This document shows, one piece after another, positions 1 through 11,522 of a stretch of DNA of 51,262 nucleotides. Within the stretch, counting starts at the first letter, position 1. Every line of letters begins with the position of its first letter. The notes beneath the pieces were generated by a model, which was given only the letters and a program-made list of their open reading frames with translations, made no database searches and was not told where the DNA came from. The position numbers were made by a program, and so were the translations under genes. Origin of the DNA: Coriobacteriia bacterium (GTDB lineage: Bacteria; Actinomycetota; Coriobacteriia; Anaerosomatales; PALSA-660); assembly GCA_025361505.1 (NCBI GenBank), contig JANYKZ010000077.1, forward strand, positions 1-51,262, read 5' to 3'.

Positions 1-19
1 TGTTGCTCCTATGTCAATC

Positions 20-1102
20 CTACACGGCGACGGCGACCTCCGCCGCCCGGAAGCGACCCGTGACGACGCGCCCCGATGCGGCCGATCGCTCAGCCCGAAG
101 CATCGTCTTGAACACGACCCTGGCCAGCTGCCGCTTCAGACACCGCAGCGCCTCGCGGTAGCTCATGCCTGCCGCCTGCTTGCGCTGCATGTAGGTGATC
201 GCCGGCGGGTGCATCCGCGCCTGGGTGACGGCGATCATGTGGATGGTGGAGTTCAGGCTTCGGTTGCCGCATCTGTTGAGGCGGTGACGGTTGCTTTGCC
301 CTGACGAGGCCGGCAGTGGCGCCACCCCGACGTGCATCGCGAACGCCGCCTCGCCACTGAAACGCGAGGCACCCGCGGTCTGTCCCACGAGCTGCGCGGC
401 GCACAGCGCCGAGCATCCCGGGATCTCAAGCAGCGCCGGAGCGAGCTCCTGCATCCGGATGGCGATCTCGCGCTCGAGTGAGCGGATCTCTTTCGTCAGC
501 TCGCGGCACCGCATCAGCTGGTCGAGCGCGATGCGGCGGCGGACGCTCTCGGGAAGGGCCACCAAGACGTCTTGGAGGCGATCGAGCCACACGTAGCGGT
601 CGAGCACCCGGGGCGGCAGTATGAGCCCGATCTCGAGGTCGTGACAGTTCCAGCGCAGCCTCTTCTGGATGCGTTTGCGCTCGTCGACCAGGGTGTCGCG
701 GTGGTCGACAAGCAGCCGGACGTCGTGTTCTGGGCCGGTCAGTGACGCCTCGGGAAGGCTCGGCTCCCGCAGGGCTGCTCTGGCCACGCACTCGGCGTCG
801 ATCGGGTCGGACTTGCCGTAGCAGCGCGCGGAGTGCCTGGCTCCCGCCATCATCTTGGGTGGCACCCGCACGACTCGCTCGCCCCTCGGGATCAGGTGCC
901 GCTCGAGGCGCCCCGAGACGTGCCGGCAGTCCTCGATGGCGAAGTAGTGGTCGCCGGGAAGCGCGCGTGCCCACACAAGCAACTCGTCGTGTCCGGCGTC
1001 GGAGCAGGTCACCGTCCGCTCGCCGAGTGCGCGGCCCGTGGCTGCGTCGAGCGCCACGGCGGTGTGGGTCTTCATGTGCGGATCGATCCCGATTACGATC
1101 AT
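20..1102 (-). CDS. IS110-family transposase/recombinase (DEDD RuvC-like domain plus C-terminal Tnp domain)
   Basis: MIVIGIDPH, AIED, GKSDPIDA, IPG, GVAPLPASSG and RLNRCGNRSL motifs. SD-like GGAAGGGG before the ATG at 1102. Confidence 0.95.
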   Translation of the reverse strand: MIVIGIDPHMKTHTAVALDAATGRALGERTVTCSDAGHDELLVWARALPGDHYFAIEDCRHVSGRLERHLIPRGERVVRVPPKMMAGARHSARCYGKSDPIDAECVARAALREPSLPEASLTGPEHDVRLLVDHRDTLVDERKRIQKRLRWNCHDLEIGLILPPRVLDRYVWLDRLQDVLVALPESVRRRIALDQLMRCRELTKEIRSLEREIAIRMQELAPALLEIPGCSALCAAQLVGQTAGASRFSGEAAFAMHVGVAPLPASSGQSNRHRLNRCGNRSLNSTIHMIAVTQARMHPPAITYMQRKQAAGMSYREALRCLKRQLARVVFKTMLRAERSAASGRVVTGRFRAAEVAVAV

Positions 1103-1109
1103 GCCTGCC

Positions 1110-1325
1110 CCTTCCGTCGGCCTTACCCGATGGTGGGGACCGCTGGCGGACACGCCTTAGCGGGGGCCTATTGGCCAGGCTCCTATCAGGTCACGTCGGC
1201 GACCCCTCGGTTCCCGGCGACGGAGGACGAAACAGCGGAAGGTCAACCCCACAAGGGGTGACAGAAGCGATTCGGGTCACTCCGTCGTCGGGACCGAGGC
1301 TACCTGACTCAAGGTCAGGAATCCC
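1110..1325 (-). ncRNA. Putative IS110 bridge RNA
   Basis: 5' hairpin (1303-1319), long stem with large internal loop (1205-1299), and a second loop carrying ATAGGAGCCT and CTAAGGC, which match the predicted circle junction ATAGGAGCCTTAG. RNA ends are approximate. Confidence 0.7.
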
Positions 1326-1347
1326 ACGAGCGCAGAGTGACACTAAG

Positions 1348-1363
1348 GATGCGCTTGTTCTGC
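1348..1363 (-). other. attC site, 5' part (R'' and start of L''), interrupted by IS110; remainder at 1-4 and beyond the window
   Basis: GCAGAAC-AAGCG-CATC resembles the sibling sites. R'' GCAGAAC is the exact complement of GTTCTGC at the start of this cassette. Confidence 0.8.
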
Positions 1364-1382
1364 ACGGCGGAATCGCACGCTA

Positions 1383-1703
1383 CTACCCAGCCGCAGTCGA
1401 GTATCCCTCATCGTGAAGCGCCTGGAGCAGCGCCTTGCGGTTGAAACTCCAGAAGAGAACATAGGGCGGGACCTTCGAGGAATCGTGCACTACCACGACT
1501 CCGTGGAAACCCGGAGGCGACCAAGCTGGGCCGAGGAGTCTGACCCGTCGTACTTGGGCGTGCGGAAGTCGGTACTCGGTCCCGCTGAGTCTCACCGTGA
1601 TGGCATCAGACCCGACGCAGAAGGTGGCGAACGGCCAAGTCGCGCCATGAGAGGACCAGAATCCTCGTCCGACTCGCGCTCCACCCCGCTGGATAAGACT
1701 CAA
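1383..1703 (-). CDS. Gene-cassette hypothetical protein (cassette 3)
   Basis: TTG start with G-rich SD just after the attC core at 1722-1728; fills the cassette. Confidence 0.7.
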   Translation of the reverse strand: MSLIQRGGARVGRGFWSSHGATWPFATFCVGSDAITVRLSGTEYRLPHAQVRRVRLLGPAWSPPGFHGVVVVHDSSKVPPYVLFWSFNRKALLQALHDEGYSTAAG

Positions 1704-1721
1704 GATGCCCCCGGTCGTCCT

Positions 1722-1807
1722 GCAGAACGTTGGGCGCGTCAGCGGTGGACTGCGCCGTTTCCTTGTTGCTCAGAGCCTACGCCACCCGCTGGACGCGCTT
1801 GTTCGGT
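1722..1807 (-). other. attC recombination site (86 bp)
   Basis: ACCGAAC AAGCG CGTCCAGCGG...CCGCTGACGCG CCCAAC GTTCTGC: imperfect palindrome with R''/L''/L'/R' layout and an extra base in L''. Confidence 0.85.
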
Positions 1808-2080
1808 GAGCGCCTCGTGCTCGTGGAGCCAGGTAGCTCCGTTCTTGGTGATCCGCAGATATGGGACGAAGACAATCTCCGCGTGCTTCCCCACGGCAGC
1901 ATCGTACTCAGCCACCGCGTAGGTCGGCCCGCACTCGCGCCACTGCACGCAGGGGGCCTGGTTCGGAGGCTCGTCCCAGGGAATGGTCGCGAGGCGTTCA
2001 AGTTCAGCCATGGCCTCGGCAAACGACTCGAACTCCCCAAAGCCCCAGGCATCATGCATCTCGTCGATGATCACGAACAC
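1739..2080 (-). CDS. Gene-cassette hypothetical protein (cassette 2)
   Basis: GTG start after AGGAAGGGGG; acidic protein with PWDEPPNQAPCVQWRECG; stop codon lies inside its attC. Confidence 0.7.
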   Translation of the reverse strand: MFVIIDEMHDAWGFGEFESFAEAMAELERLATIPWDEPPNQAPCVQWRECGPTYAVAEYDAAVGKHAEIVFVPYLRITKNGATWLHEHEALTEQARPAGGVGSEQQGNGAVHR

Positions 2081-2107
2081 CGCAACACCACCCCCTTCCT
2101 GCGTCGC

Positions 2108-2193
2108 ACCGAACGTCTGGCGCGTAACCTCCGCGCTCATTTCCCTGCATTGTGCGCTTGCCAAGACGCGTGAGGTTGACGCGCTTGTTCGAC
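2108..2193 (-). other. attC recombination site (86 bp)
   Basis: GTCGAAC AAGCG CGTCAACCTC...GAGGTTACGCG CCAGAC GTTCGGT: same architecture as 1722-1807. Confidence 0.85.
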
Positions 2194-2208
2194 GTGCTCG
2201 GTGCAGCC

Positions 2209-2472
2209 CTACCTGGGTGCAACGCTCGAGAGAAGAGCGAACAGGACCCCGGCCAGAATCGCCCAAACGACGATCTTGCCCACCAGACCGGCGCGCTTGA
2301 TCGCAACGTACTGGAAGAACCCAGCGTCGCGCATGCGCTCGCCCATCCAGCCGCCGTACGCCTCAGACACTACGATCTCGTCCCTGGTGAGGTCACGCTC
2401 GGGATGAGGAACCGGGCGCTCGGCAGGCGGCGGCTCGGCGCTGCTATCTCGGTTCCAGAAGTCGTCGTCCAT
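2209..2472 (-). CDS. Gene-cassette small membrane protein (cassette 1)
   Basis: ATG after GGGGGAC; MDDDFWN start; C-terminal hydrophobic helix IVVWAILAGVLFALL. Confidence 0.65.
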   Translation of the reverse strand: MDDDFWNRDSSAEPPPAERPVPHPERDLTRDEIVVSEAYGGWMGERMRDAGFFQYVAIKRAGLVGKIVVWAILAGVLFALLSSVAPR

Positions 2473-2499
2473 CGAGTCCCCCGACCATGCCAGTGTCAC

Positions 2500-2535
2500 G
2501 TCGAACAATGCTTCTACGGTCTGGATAACAACCAA
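2500..2535 (-). other. Candidate attI-like site at the head of the cassette array
   Basis: GTTCGAC (2506-2500) complements R'' GTCGAAC of the first cassette's attC. The sequence upstream is AT-richer and not an attC hairpin. Confidence 0.5.
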
Positions 2536-2549
2536 GATTCCCCAGAGCC

Positions 2550-2578
2550 ACTATGGCGGTTGCCATGTAAGAAGTCAC
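2550..2578 (-). promoter_or_regulatory. Candidate cassette promoter (Pc-like)
   Basis: GTGACT-N17-CATAGT pointing into the array. Confidence 0.3.
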
Positions 2579-2800
2579 TCGAAGTCCTGATCCATCCGCC
2601 TTCCTCGTCGCCGACTCGCCACGATCGGCCGGCATGGACCGGACCCGATCGCCCGCGAGACCGTGTGCGACCTGCCGGCGGCGAGAGATCGATGTCGTGG
2701 TCGGCCTGAAACCTGCGTCGCTCGGGGACGATGCGCTGTGGCAGGAATCGGGAATCTCATCTGGGACGGACGAGAAGACTCAGGAAGCGAGGCGGTTCCC

Positions 2801-2989
2801 GTGAGCGACAACATGAACAGAGGTGCGCAGGCAGGTGGCGGCGCGGTCTACGGCTTGGGAATGATCGGCGCGGCCGTGTACTTCATCCAGCACGCTGCGA
2901 GCTTCGGCGACGGGGTGCTGGGCGTCCTGAAGGCGATCGTCTGGCCGGCGTTCCTCATCTACCAGGCGCTAGGCGCCCTCAAGATGTAG
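2801..2989 (+). CDS. Small two-helix membrane protein
   Basis: GAGG then GTG (alternative ATG at 2813); [19 protein letters not shown]...[14 protein letters not shown]; typical high-GC3 codon usage. Confidence 0.75.
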
Positions 2990-3362
2990 GACCCGGCAGC
3001 CGTTCGGCCCTTCGCTCGACCACGCGGTTCGCGCCGTCCACGAACACGGCACACGGCTTCCAGACCCGCGCCTCGGCGTCGTCGAGCGAGACGAAGGTGG
3101 CGATGATCACGAGGTCGCCGGCGTGCACGAGGTGGGCTGCTGCTCCGTTGACGCAGACCACACCGGAGCCGCGCTCCCCTGCCAGGGCGTAGGTGGTCAG
3201 GCGCGCGGCGTTGGTGACGTCCCAGATCTCGACGGCCTCGCCCTCGAGGATCCCCGCGGCGTCGAGCAGGTCCCGGTCGACGGTGACGCTGCCCTCGTAG
3301 TCCAGGTCCGCTGCGGTCACCGTGGCGCGGTGGATCTTGCCTCCCAGCATCGTGCGTCTCAT
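2979..3362 (-). CDS. panD: Aspartate 1-decarboxylase
   Basis: [12 protein letters not shown] autocleavage site, [16 protein letters not shown]. Confidence 0.95.
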
Positions 3363-4148: not shown

Positions 4149-4606
4149 GGCCGCGCCTCGGGAAGCCGGACGACGACCGACTCCTTCACCGTCGACAGCA
4201 CGACCGTCGTGCGCGTGCGCGCCACGCCGGGCACTCCCTTGAGCACGTTGCTCACGAGGTGCTCCAGCTCGGCGGTCCCTCCGCAGCGCACCTTGAGGAC
4301 GTAGTCGTCCTCACCCGCGGTGTGATGGCACTCCTGGACTTCAACGGTGTCGTTCACCAGCCGCAGGAACTCGGCGCGCGCGTCGGGACCGCTCAGGCTC
4401 ACCGCGACGAGCGCCGTCAGATGCGCTCCCACGGTCGCGCCGTTCACGAGCGCCGCGTATCCCGTGATCACACCGCGTTCCTCGAGCCGGTGCACGCGCT
4501 CGGCGACGGCGGGAGCCGACAGCCCGGTGCGCTGCGCGAGGTCAGCCCAGGACATGCGGCCCTCCTCCATCAGCGTGGTGAGGACCTCACGGTCGATGGT
4601 ATCCAT
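4145..4606 (-). CDS. Lrp/AsnC-family transcriptional regulator
   Basis: MDTIDREVL...LSAPAVAERVHRLEERGVITGY; ECHHTAGEDDYVLKV. Confidence 0.95.
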   Translation of the reverse strand: MDTIDREVLTTLMEEGRMSWADLAQRTGLSAPAVAERVHRLEERGVITGYAALVNGATVGAHLTALVAVSLSGPDARAEFLRLVNDTVEVQECHHTAGEDDYVLKVRCGGTAELEHLVSNVLKGVPGVARTRTTVVLSTVKESVVVRLPEARP

Positions 4607-4647
4607 GGCGCGCTTCCTTCGAATCGTTTGTGCTATTGCCCTACACC

Positions 4648-5112
4648 CTACGATTCGATGTTGGCAGCGTCAACCACTCTCAGGTCCGCAGCCGTGGCCC
4701 GGTCCTTCCGGATGCCCCGGATCGACCGAACCGAGGCCACGATGAGCAGGATCACCAGGATGAGGAGCTCCAGCGCGTAGATCGAGGTCAGCCGGCTGAG
4801 CGTGTCGTTACCGGGCCAGCGCTGAGTGAGCATCCATGCGTACCACGGGATCCACTGGACGACCATGAATCCCGCCAGTGCGGCGGTCACGAGGGACCAG
4901 CGCATCGACACCCCGCTCCATCGCCGGGTCAGCAACGCCAGCGCGATGGCGAGGACGGGAGTGAAGTCGGCGAGCGGGCCGATCCCGGCCGCCACGGCCA
5001 TCGTGGTCAGCATGGACCAGACCACGAACGGGATCGCCAAGCCGAACAGCCACACGCCCCAATGCGGTGCAGGGTGCCGCGCGGCAGACTCCCTCGGACC
5101 GGCCATGGCCAC
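4648..5112 (-). CDS. Hypothetical membrane protein
   Basis: About four hydrophobic segments; collinear with its neighbours. Confidence 0.6.
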   Translation of the reverse strand: MAMAGPRESAARHPAPHWGVWLFGLAIPFVVWSMLTTMAVAAGIGPLADFTPVLAIALALLTRRWSGVSMRWSLVTAALAGFMVVQWIPWYAWMLTQRWPGNDTLSRLTSIYALELLILVILLIVASVRSIRGIRKDRATAADLRVVDAANIES

Positions 5113-8936: not shown

Positions 8937-9542
8937 CTACCGATCCTCGGTCGGGTCGATCACCTTGACGCCGATGTCCTCCGCCAACCCGACGACCTGC
9001 CGGGTCGTCAGCACGATGCCGTACGGGCCGTTCCGCAGGTCGAGCCCTCTGATGCTCGAACCGCGCAGGTCCGTGTCGCGCGTCCGCACCCCGGTCCAGT
9101 CGGCGTCCGTCAGGTCGCAGTTCACGAGGCTGGCGTCGGTCAGATCGGCGCCGTAGAGGTCACACTCCCTCATGGAGCAGCCGGAGAACTCCGTGTGGGT
9201 CAGGTCGACTCCCCGGAAGAGCGCGTAGTCGAGGTTGGTGTTGCTGAACGTCGACGATCCGAGGCGGGTCCCGCGACGGAAGTCGAGACCGATCATCTTG
9301 CACTCCTCGATCGCCGCGCCGAAGAACCCGGCGCCCTGGACCGCGGCACCCTCGAACTGGCACCGGCGGATGGTCGCAGCGTTGAACTTCGCGTCGGTCA
9401 GCACGCACTCGGCGAACGAGCAGTCCTCGATGACCCGGTCGGCGAAATCGAACCCAACGAGCCGCAGCCCGTCGAAGGACAGGTCGCTCAGCGCCTCGAG
9501 TCCCTCGAGCCCCGCGAGGTCGGACGGGGTCACCTGCCTCAC
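8937..9542 (-). CDS. Pentapeptide repeat protein
   Basis: Tandem ADLTD/ASLVN/CDLTD-type pentapeptides. Start uncertain. Confidence 0.9.
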   Translation of the reverse strand: MRQVTPSDLAGLEGLEALSDLSFDGLRLVGFDFADRVIEDCSFAECVLTDAKFNAATIRRCQFEGAAVQGAGFFGAAIEECKMIGLDFRRGTRLGSSTFSNTNLDYALFRGVDLTHTEFSGCSMRECDLYGADLTDASLVNCDLTDADWTGVRTRDTDLRGSSIRGLDLRNGPYGIVLTTRQVVGLAEDIGVKVIDPTEDR

Positions 9543-9661
9543 GAGCCACCCGCCTTCTGATCGTCGAGCCGTGATCGCAAACGTGCGACGCAAGGATACC
9601 CGTGCGCCGCGCGTCGAAGGGGTATCAAGTGAGCAGAGGCCGCGAACGGAAGGGGCTACCG

Positions 9662-9979
9662 ATGGGCTGTTGTCTTGGAGTGATCCTGCTGGCCGGGGCG
9701 CCGCGCCTCGGGCTCGGGCTGTGGTGGTTCATGGACCCGGCACGCATCCTCTCGGCGTTCAGCGGCTGGTCGACCACGGTCGGCAGCTTCACGGCCCCGA
9801 TGTGGATCTGGCCGCTCGCCGGCCTGCTCCTGCTCCCCTGGACCACGATCGCCTGGGTGTTCGTGTCGCCGGGTGGCGTCACGCCCCTCGAGTGGGTCAT
9901 CCTCGGGATCGCCCTGCTTCTCGACCTCGGGACCCACGGCGGGGGCGGTCGCGCGTATCAGCGGCGGTACGCCTCCTGA
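9662..9979 (+). CDS. Small membrane protein
   Basis: SD GAAGGGG; MGCCLGVILLAGAPRL...GLLLLPWTTIAW; three TM segments. Confidence 0.8.
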   Translation: MGCCLGVILLAGAPRLGLGLWWFMDPARILSAFSGWSTTVGSFTAPMWIWPLAGLLLLPWTTIAWVFVSPGGVTPLEWVILGIALLLDLGTHGGGGRAYQRRYAS

Positions 9980-10067
9980 CCGAGCGGGACGATCGCGAGC
10001 CCATGCGTTTCCCAGCGCCCGGCGCCTGTGCGACCATGCGGTACCGCGAATCGGAGGGAGAGGGCCC

Positions 10068-11522
10068 ATGGCGCAGCTGATCGCGAACTTCTACTGGATC
10101 GGCTACGTGCTGCTCGCCCTCTACTGGATCGTCGCCGTCGTGGCGATCGTCGCCGAGCACCGCGACCCGACGGCCACGCTCCTGTGGATCACGATCCTCA
10201 TCGTCCTGCCCGGAGTCGGGTTGCTCGTCTACTTCTTCGCGGGCCGGGACTGGAAGCGGATCCACGCTCGGCAGCGCTGGGTCGCGGACCTGCGCGCGCT
10301 GCGCGAACCGTTCATGGAGCCGTTCTACGACCGGTACCGGGAGTTCTCGGACGCGGCGGTCGCGGCGTACCGCGGGACCCCGACCGAGCGGCTCATCCGG
10401 GCGATCTCGACGGAGCGCGGCAACGGACCGCTCCCGGTCAACGACCTCGAGATCTTTCCGAGCGGCGCCGAGTACTTCCCGCGTCTCATCGACGACATCT
10501 CGAAGGCGCAGCGATCGATCCACATGCAGTACTACACGTGGGAGCGCGACGAGCTGACCACCGAGATCTGCGCAGCGCTGATGGAGCGGGTGCGGGCCGG
10601 CGTCGAGGTCCGGATCCTCAACGACTTCCTAGGCAGCTTCCGCTACCGCAAGGACCAGCTCGACGCGCTCAAGGCCGCCGGCGCGCACGTCGGATCGGAC
10701 ATGACGCAGATCGGCAGGGTCAACTACCGCGATCATCGCAAGATCACCGTGATCGACGAGGTGATCGGCCACACCGGCGGCATCAACATCGGTCAGGAGT
10801 ACATCGATGGTGGCGCCAACTTCCCATCGTGGCGCGATACCGGCATGCGCGTCACCGGTCCCGCCGTCGGCGAGCTCCAGAAGCTGTTCGCCGACCGCTG
10901 GTACGAGGTGTTCCGCGAGAACCTGTTCAAGCCGCGCTACTTCCCGGCGCCGGACACCGCTGTCGTCGCGAAGCCGATCATGACCCACGTGGTCGCTCAG
11001 GGCGTGGAGGAGCGCTGGTCGTCCTCGACGCGCGCGCACGAGATCGCGATCTCGGGTGCGCGGAGCCGGGTGTCGATCCAGTCACCCTACTGGGTGCCCG
11101 ATCCCACCATGCTCGACGTCTTCATCAACGCGGCCCTGTCGGGAGTCGACGTTCGCTTCATGATGACGGGCCTGCCCGACAAGAAGCTGGCTTACAACGC
11201 CGCGGAGTCCTACTGGGAGCCCGTGCTGCGCGCGGGGGGCCACGTCTACCTCTACATGGCGGGGTTCATGCACGCGAAGACCATCGTCATCGACGGAACC
11301 GTCTCCGCCGTCGGCACGATGAACCTCGACATCCGCAGCCTCAGGCTCAACCAGGAGCTCATGGTTTGGATCTACGACGAGGCCGTGGCGCGGCGCCAGG
11401 AGGAGATCTTCGAGGCCGACCTGGAGAAGTGCGTCGAGGTCACCCTGGAGGTCATCGCGTCGTGGAGCGCGTTCAAGCGCTTCAAGCACTCGGCGAGCCG
11501 GCTCGGCTCGAACCTGCTGTAG
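10068..11522 (+). CDS. cls: Cardiolipin synthase
   Basis: N-terminal PLDc_N TM helices; two HKD motifs (HRKITVID, HAKTIVID); QSPY; GTMNLDIRS. Confidence 0.92.
   Translation: MAQLIANFYWIGYVLLALYWIVAVVAIVAEHRDPTATLLWITILIVLPGVGLLVYFFAGRDWKRIHARQRWVADLRALREPFMEPFYDRYREFSDAAVAAYRGTPTERLIRAISTERGNGPLPVNDLEIFPSGAEYFPRLIDDISKAQRSIHMQYYTWERDELTTEICAALMERVRAGVEVRILNDFLGSFRYRKDQLDALKAAGAHVGSDMTQIGRVNYRDHRKITVIDEVIGHTGGINIGQEYIDGGANFPSWRDTGMRVTGPAVGELQKLFADRWYEVFRENLFKPRYFPAPDTAVVAKPIMTHVVAQGVEERWSSSTRAHEIAISGARSRVSIQSPYWVPDPTMLDVFINAALSGVDVRFMMTGLPDKKLAYNAAESYWEPVLRAGGHVYLYMAGFMHAKTIVIDGTVSAVGTMNLDIRSLRLNQELMVWIYDEAVARRQEEIFEADLEKCVEVTLEVIASWSAFKRFKHSASRLGSNLL

Follow-up and report, generated by a model that had tools for sequence, protein, structure and literature searches.

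Sedentary chromosomal integrons, of which the superintegron of Vibrio cholerae with its VCR (V. cholerae repeat) elements is an example, are the closest described counterparts of the locus analysed in this work, which lies at one end of a contig of a Coriobacteriia bacterium (Actinomycetota; Anaerosomatales). Other described systems that bear on it are the 'inverted integrase' integrons, the clusters of attC sites lacking integron-integrases (CALIN) and the insertion sequences (IS) that target attC sites. In published surveys the Actinobacteria are essentially integron-free; 'a few CALIN' were reported in this group (Neron et al., 2022; PMC9024848), and a passage of one review lists Actinobacteriota among the phyla in which integrons have been detected (PMC8618304). 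Among the papers listed by a full-text literature search, and judging some by title and abstract, no relevant report on integrons in Coriobacteriia, Anaerosomatales, Thermoleophilia or such a lineage was found; supplementary taxon tables may list them. The stretch studied here (the window, 51,262 nucleotides) is the entire contig JANYKZ010000077.1 of the host genome, an assembly of 1.9 Mb in 109 contigs that is 90% complete, with 69.0% GC and an estimated contamination of 2%. Our findings make it highly probable that a chromosomal array of integron cassettes is present in this Coriobacteriia genome and that positions 1347-2579 are its attI-proximal part, made of three promoterless single-gene cassettes whose attC sites belong to a family that extends over the whole order. 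The features of the array, in reading direction, are these:

1347-2579, minus strand: integron array, attI followed by three cassettes, from direct reading of the sequence
2500-2579, minus strand: putative attI, with the core GTTCGAC at 2506->2500, the proximal box CAGACCGTAGAAGCATT and the distal box GAGTGACTTCTTACATGG at 2579->2562
2505->2114, minus strand: cassette 1, 392 bp
2472->2209, minus strand: cassette 1 gene, open reading frame (ORF) A, 87 aa, ATG start after GGGGGA, hydrophobic C-terminal stretch
2108-2193, minus strand: attC1, 86 bp, R'' GTCGAAC to R' GTTCGGT, nhmmer 50.1 bits
2113->1728, minus strand: cassette 2, 386 bp
2083->1739, minus strand: cassette 2 gene, ORF-B, about 114 aa from a GTG start, with AGGAAGGGGG just upstream
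1722-1807, minus strand: attC2, 86 bp, R'' ACCGAAC to R' GTTCTGC, nhmmer 49.1 bits
1727->1347, minus strand: cassette 3, truncated, read from the sequence
1703->1383, minus strand: cassette 3 gene, ORF-C, 106 aa, TTG start with a GGGGG run 4 nt upstream
1347-1363, minus strand: attC3 remnant of 17 nt, R'' GCAGAAC and the start of L'' (AAGCGCATCC), followed by an IS at the bulged-base position

The anatomy of the cassettes could be read directly. As a preliminary description of this DNA had claimed, each of the three cassettes starts with a 7-nt core that is the exact complement of its own downstream R''; in minus-strand reading, GTTCGAC (2506->2500) complements GTCGAAC (2193->2187), GTTCGGT (2114->2108) complements ACCGAAC (1807->1801) and GTTCTGC (1728->1722) complements GCAGAAC (1363->1357), the match of cassette 1 extending to 12 nt. 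Inside one and the same attC, R' and R'' are inexact complements, with two mismatched positions per pair. Taking the rate of about 7.9 in 83 for random pairs at the four variable positions (see below), a perfect match in 3/3 cassettes would arise by chance about once in 1000. The two complete attC sites, described earlier as elements of 86 bp with a common stretch, do both hold GAACAAGCGCGTC, and the copy in attC3 reads GAACAAGCGCATC; the repeats begin with ..GAACAAGCGC[G/A]TC and lie 3' of each cassette ORF. All three ORFs are intact, stand in a single orientation and retain their start signals, the core and a purine-rich Shine-Dalgarno-like run being located within about 30 nt upstream of each start. 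The final 22 codons of ORF-B overlap attC2 (1739-1807), which makes its real C-terminus uncertain.

The significance of these elements emerges from the related genomes. A search of the DNA of 40 relatives gave matches to the two 86-bp elements and none to the ORFs; these matches were clustered in genomes of the same genus and the same order. A nhmmer profile, built iteratively from attC1 and attC2 and run on ten fetched loci, gave a total of 99 sites; 97 come from these loci, which represent eight relatives, and the other 2 are those of the window. Within each relative locus the sites are all on one strand, with a spacing of mostly 400-1000 bp, and the arrays examined hold 10-26 sites. Because cleavage by IntI falls between G and TT, six bases at the end of R' pass to the next cassette and should complement the R'' of that cassette. 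This boundary rule, R' of one site complementing R'' of the next at the four variable positions, was observed in 50 of the 83 adjacent pairs of the relatives and the window, whereas R' and R'' of the same site were complementary at these positions in 11/92; in 10,000 shuffles the matches averaged 7.9 and never exceeded 20 of 83. This bears out the earlier proposal of an integron array formed from circles, as does the presence of the same element beside intI in relatives.

That association was assessed with TIGR02249, the curated integron-integrase model, at its cut-off of 265 bits. An intI gene over the cut-off occurs in 28 of 41 relatives, with scores of up to 491 bits, and in 6/9 genomes of the same genus. 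One same-genus IntI reaches 467.8 bits, and its residues 13-321 align with the crystallised Vibrio integrase VchIntIA (IntI4; PDB 2a3v) at E = 6e-87. Six of the fetched loci bear intI (G009, G008, G004:C34, G007:C3, G026 and G027, where the gene is partial), and in every one of them intI is followed by the array, which has the same orientation. Chimeric assembly of the intI-adjacent arrays is unlikely, several of them lying on contigs of 0.19-1.8 Mb. In G009:C104 (L026, 4681-4742) the 3' end of intI is N-masked, and the read-through ORF that results, with its end in the attI core, is an artefact; in other relatives the true stop lies about 60-200 nt upstream of that core. A type II toxin-antitoxin (TA) pair is found between the intI stop and attI in two of these genomes, with BrnT and a CopG-type antitoxin in G007:C3 (L030, 2955-3579) and a HigB-like and a helix-turn-helix (HTH) protein in G008:C7 (L027, 2556-3163), according to Pfam.

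By homology and position, window 2500-2579 is the probable attI site. Its proximal 20-nt box together with GTT is identical to the point where the cassettes start downstream of intI in G007 and G008, and agrees at 20/22 positions with that of another family of the host order; the distal box is shared too, and the whole site is 77-78% identical over 76-78 nt to those of G007:C3 and G007:C7. The first cassettes differ among the three same-genus genomes (the window, G007 and G008) in spite of the identical attI box, a variability of cassettes among relatives whose absence, according to the preliminary description, would have counted against an integron. All this has to be set against the view that the repeats are repetitive extragenic palindromic (REP)-like or terminator-like intergenic hairpins unrelated to integrons, with a core complementarity due to chance. 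The elements are indeed GC-rich hairpins 3' of ORFs with no integrase encoded nearby, but the genome-wide search that had been called for found only three copies of the 13-nt motif GAACAAGCGC[AG]TC in the 1.9-Mb genome, every one of them in the array, and the attC-family profile returned from the same genome, at E<=1, only the two complete sites of the window. The copies in relatives, moreover, occur only in one-direction arrays starting at attI downstream of intI, and the frequency of boundary matches far exceeds the mean of the shuffles. With a repeat confined to the locus in its own genome and organized in one-strand arrays in relatives, the attC element is not REP-like, and we regard a hairpin origin as very improbable. 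The locus is best taken, as proposed, for an integron cassette array.

The structure of the sites was analysed on an alignment of 71 bottom-strand sites (A1), including attC1 and attC2, with the structure written from the two folds of the window; it derives from 75 sites of at least 30 bits with both boxes, less four long G026 sites that were removed for compactness. The L helix is paired in 94% over the 71 sites, with 13/16 pairs changing on both sides, and the R helix in 80%, being weakest at the three positions inherited from different cassettes. None of 500 shuffles reached the observed covariation score, and slid registers were only 28-39% paired. Two bases are left unpaired on the R''/L'' arm: a G that at least 90% of sites retain, and a second base that is usually T. 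They may correspond to the extrahelical bases of canonical attC sites, whose pattern they resemble. On the plus strand, the DNA hairpin of attC1 has an energy of -28.8 kcal/mol (z = -3.6). A scan of window 1-3000 against Rfam 15 at E<=1 gave no match, neither attC nor the RNA of the IS being covered.

The preliminary description had also singled out the GTTC cores, with C at position 4, as the mark of a non-canonical, lineage-specific family. All the cores of the window do carry this C, but the family is not defined by it: over 92 sites, this position of R' holds A 44 times, C 30 times, G 16 times and T twice, the commonest core being GTTAGGC (18 sites) and GTTCGAC the second (13 sites). The AAC and GTT triplets are retained in at least 87 of the 92. 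GTTC cores are therefore a frequent variant inside an otherwise canonical attC family and not a separate class.

Sequencing runs offered a further view of the locus. Four runs of one study contain 94-95% of the sampled words of window 1-2700, and in run X2 one contig, with a depth of 3.6 where the main form has 11-16, connects 2109 with 2502, skipping 392 nt with an ambiguity of 5 nt. The skipped segment has the exact size and position of cassette 1, between two G|TT points, and is therefore a weak hint of recent activity. Two joints in run X7 (1359->2148 and 1360->1725) have short sides and a likeness of 90% and were taken as attC sites of other organisms. Among the sequencing runs listed, no RNA run contains the locus.

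Several results weigh against the interpretation of the locus as an integron array. The X2 joint consists of a single low-depth contig whose shorter side measures 25 nt, and other letters may lie between the two sides. The boundary rule is broken in 33/83 adjacent pairs; several of these span gaps of more than 2 kb, where a site was probably missed. The hairpin of attC2 has no stability beyond that of shuffled sequence (z = -0.05; 88/200 shuffles fold equally well), and consequently the structural case rests on covariation instead of energy. A sigma-70-like promoter scan of 1300-3000 found none. Finally, the search for an IntI-type recombinase that had been suggested earlier succeeded in relatives and failed in the host: neither the window nor the 90%-complete assembly holds intI, the best TIGR02249 match being Xer-like with 76 bits, and tblastn of the own genome with a same-genus IntI found two Xer-like genes only. 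Recombination can therefore not be attributed to the host genome. The observations themselves comprise the anatomy of the array, the family to which its attC and attI belong, the occurrence of that family beside intI in relatives, the covariation of the stem and the boundary rule.

How an array of this type persists beside no integrase can be approached through the other genomes of the genus. G001, a single contig of 1.8 Mb, has three arrays and no intI at E<=1e-20, which implies that arrays of the host genus can persist without intI. The array of G007:C7, 78 bp from a LysE homolog and with no adjacent intI, comprises one cassette, two attC sites and an attI that shares 78% identity with that of the window; the same genome carries an intI-attI on the separate contig C3. 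In G008 a second, intI-less array of at least 7 attC sites starts about 3 kb from a LysE homolog; the complete integron of this genome is 130 kb away on the same contig, which measures 193 kb. This second array (L131, C7:165000-184900) is loosely spaced and carries a related IS; an attI-like box was not found in it by pattern search. Simple deletion of intI as the whole story was discarded, the regions upstream of intI in G007, G008, G004 and G009 being unlike the flank of the window and the intI-less layout being recurrent. The recurrence of this layout beside LysE in the genus leads us to see the window locus as a conserved satellite array and not as a fresh deletion.

Two accounts of the missing integrase have then to be compared. 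In one, the integron is complete and active, with intI unassembled or unbinned, and an IntI encoded at another place in the same cell would recombine the array. The incompleteness of the assembly and its division into 109 contigs leave room for this, as do the intI genes of six of the nine same-genus genomes, the pairing in G008 and G007 of intI-less LysE-side arrays with intI elsewhere, and the X2 contig that lacks exactly cassette 1; the assembled 1.9 Mb without intI, the three arrays of G001 without it and the weakness of the X2 joint speak against it. In the other, the species has lost intI and the array is a fossil, three cassettes frozen and decaying, of which the IS insertion was the first step. 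The failure to find intI in window or assembly, the disruption of attC3 and the small number of intact attC sites left in the genome (2, against 10-26 per examined array of relatives) agree with it, but all three ORFs are intact with start signals, both attC sites and attI are close to the family consensus, and a cassette-1-less allele may exist in the population. We hold the two to be about evenly matched, each falling slightly short of an even chance.

The mechanism that we envisage for the array is the following. A cassette circle would enter by IntI-catalysed recombination at G|TT between a folded attC and attI, and the newest cassette would be the one nearest attI. The plus strand of the window would be the bottom strand of attC, which may fold in vivo into a hairpin; an unpaired spacer would separate its R-box stem from the covarying L-box stem, and two bases would bulge out on the R''/L'' arm. 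An IntI encoded at another place, a situation met in two same-genus genomes, may serve the array, or the array may now be frozen, and the third attC would have been inactivated by an IS110-family element targeting the attC family at one fixed position. The features of this element are the following:

2-1346, minus strand: IS110-family IS, 1345 bp, termini TTAGTG...GCAAC, inserted inside attC3
23-1102, minus strand: transposase ORF of the IS, with Pfam DEDD_Tnp_IS110 and Transposase_20
1103-1346, minus strand: left end of the IS, non-coding, 244 nt, candidate guide (bridge/seek) RNA, fold z = -3.4

The transposase scores 176 bits on NCBIfam NF033542 (IS110 family RNA-guided transposase), for which the cut-off is 140. 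Related copies, 75-80% identical over their full length, and one fragment were found in G020, G008, G010 (two), G018 and G005 (loci L117, L118, L119, L125, L120 and L122), and comparison with five full-length relatives served to set the ends of the IS. The left junction is identical and lies in an attC-like L'' context in all 7 copies, including that of the window; in the five complete relative copies the remainder of the attC follows the right end. Insertion always occurs after ..GCGC(A/T)TC(C/A), the bulged-base position, in a constant orientation. The upstream non-coding region of the IS contains a hairpin flanked by two short segments, the first of which resembles the left target flank (GCGCTTC, 7/7 in G010), while the complement of the second tracks the right flank by attC subtype (TCCGCTG/AGCGGA, TCAGGTG/ACCTGA and TCAGCTG/AGCAG or AGCGG). 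These segments suggest, from sequence comparison, a fit to the target loop of a bridge/seek RNA, as described in PMC11208160 and PMC11187229, programmed to attC. A near-identical IS (2 differences in 1230 nt), again adjoining the start of an attC, is present in the runs of a second study.

The origin of the contig itself was also considered, because IntI relatives at 60-70% identity occur in many phyla and the contamination of the metagenome-assembled genome is estimated at 2%; the contig could in principle be a binning contaminant from another phylum, and the integron not actinobacterial. The flank of the window is, however, syntenic with genomes of the same genus, in which the LysE homolog (75-79% identity), the panD region (76-87%) and a homolog of 9420-11522 (77%) each adjoin arrays whose attC sites are of this family; two same-genus genomes share the identical attI box, and integrons of relatives stand on contigs of up to 1.8 Mb. 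We therefore find contamination highly unlikely. Two of the same-genus genomes (G004 and G009) are recorded as Coriobacteriia bacterium, and Coriobacteriia is a class of Actinomycetota, in agreement with the actinobacterial host that had been presumed for this DNA.

The flank upstream of attI contains a LysE-like ORF, panD (identified by Pfam) and, between attI and panD, a small ORF (2813-2989, plus strand, about 58 aa from ATG) with two hydrophobic stretches and no Pfam family. A remnant of intI was sought upstream of attI: tblastn with a same-genus IntI gave only noise in the window, and local DNA alignment matched the attI box only. The C-terminus of the ORF at 2575-2814 (minus strand) was rejected as an IntI tail, homology with G007 and G008 beginning only at the distal attI box. 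In G004:C8 (L129, 76000-82000), a panD homolog (4299-4695) lies between attC sites at 4174-4253 and 4762-4840, and a 2.1-kb homolog of window 9420-11522 lies between two other attC sites (L129, 413-6000). Core-like genes thus appear in G004:C8 as cassettes or interleaved with the array.

The cassette genes of the window gave no significant family in Pfam, NCBIfam or PADLOC. A protein atlas provided leads only, with 0.88 for ORF-B and, for ORF-C, 0.95 to unnamed clusters, one of which has bPH_11 in 68% of its members, and homologs of ORF-B and ORF-C are absent from the 145 other genomes of the host order. The GC content of the array is 63.5%, against 69.0% for the genome, and its GC content at third codon positions (GC3) is 0.67-0.80, against 0.87-0.93 in the adjacent core genes. 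A direct repeat (1689-1711 and 2521-2543) was judged to be due to chance.

The integrase is widespread in the order to which the host belongs. IntI over the cut-off occurs in 96 of its 146 genomes, and a match at E<=1e-60 was obtained in 79 of the 98 that are of high quality. When the phylum was sampled evenly, the count over the cut-off was 23/401, including the unpublished genomes G227 and G293, with the matches concentrated in few families; among the genomes listed, 19 others of the same class had 0 matches, and families f26-f28 had 0/13, 0/2 and 0/12. Outside the host order, IntI over the cut-off is concentrated in f36 (6/10 genomes) and f38 (7/21), counts that again include G227 and G293, and Thermoleophilia and Actinomycetes are among the IntI relatives. 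On these grounds we tentatively hypothesize, at somewhat less than an even chance, that the host order constitutes a major and so far undescribed reservoir of sedentary chromosomal integrons, in which about two thirds of the species-level genomes would encode IntI, with an order-wide attC family where GTTC is common, an intI in the same direction as the cassettes and in some cases with TA pairs, satellite arrays that have attI but lack an adjacent intI and may depend on an integrase from another locus, and an RNA-guided IS110-type parasite of the L'' of attC. If such a reservoir exists, it overturns the repeated statement that Actinobacteria are essentially without integrons. If integrons are truly established in this lineage, the supposed integron barrier in Gram-positive high-GC bacteria is not general, and natural attC, attI and IntI partners from a distant phylum become tractable for integron biology. 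The arrays of relatives reach at least 26 attC sites. The window locus, a three-cassette array without integrase, is of smaller value in itself; what makes it interesting is above all its host lineage and the IS110 element that targets attC.

With respect to known systems, the IS can be compared with the attC-targeting elements already described, which according to PMC11187229 belong to the IS1111 type, where the non-coding region follows the transposase. The IS1111-attC group (ISKpn4, ISPst6; PMC11187229, citing Tetu and Holmes, 2008, and Post and Hall, 2009) shares with the IS of the window a DEDD transposase, a fixed position and orientation in attC and target-matching guides in the non-coding region. 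The present IS differs in having this region upstream of the transposase, as in the IS110 type, in its Coriobacteriia hosts and in its insertion at the bulged base of L''. The 'inverted integrase' integrons share the layout of the 6/6 loci of relatives, where cassettes and intI are read in one direction and attI comes after the stop codon of intI; a possible difference is the TA pair that the relatives G007 and G008 have between intI and attI.

With the sedentary chromosomal integrons, as characterized in PMC4889954, the relatives have in common long arrays of mostly single unannotatable ORFs and attC sites that are similar within the lineage. The R''/R' boxes with AAC and GTT, the bulged hairpin and a TIGR02249 IntI similar over its full length to VchIntIA are shared as well. 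Unlike the sedentary integrons of Proteobacteria, the present ones have a host in Coriobacteriia, an intI that runs in relatives in the same direction as the cassettes, a C at position 4 of R' in a third of the sites and, in the window, a locus without intI. The CALIN, as defined by Cury et al. (2016; PMC4889954) and Neron et al. (2022; PMC9024848), are matched by the window in its two or more attC sites and the lack of a nearby intI; the window nevertheless keeps an intact attI and occupies the same chromosomal place, beside LysE, as arrays in congeners with intI elsewhere. The locus is, therefore, formally a CALIN with attI retained, within an order-wide family of chromosomal integrons of classical architecture.

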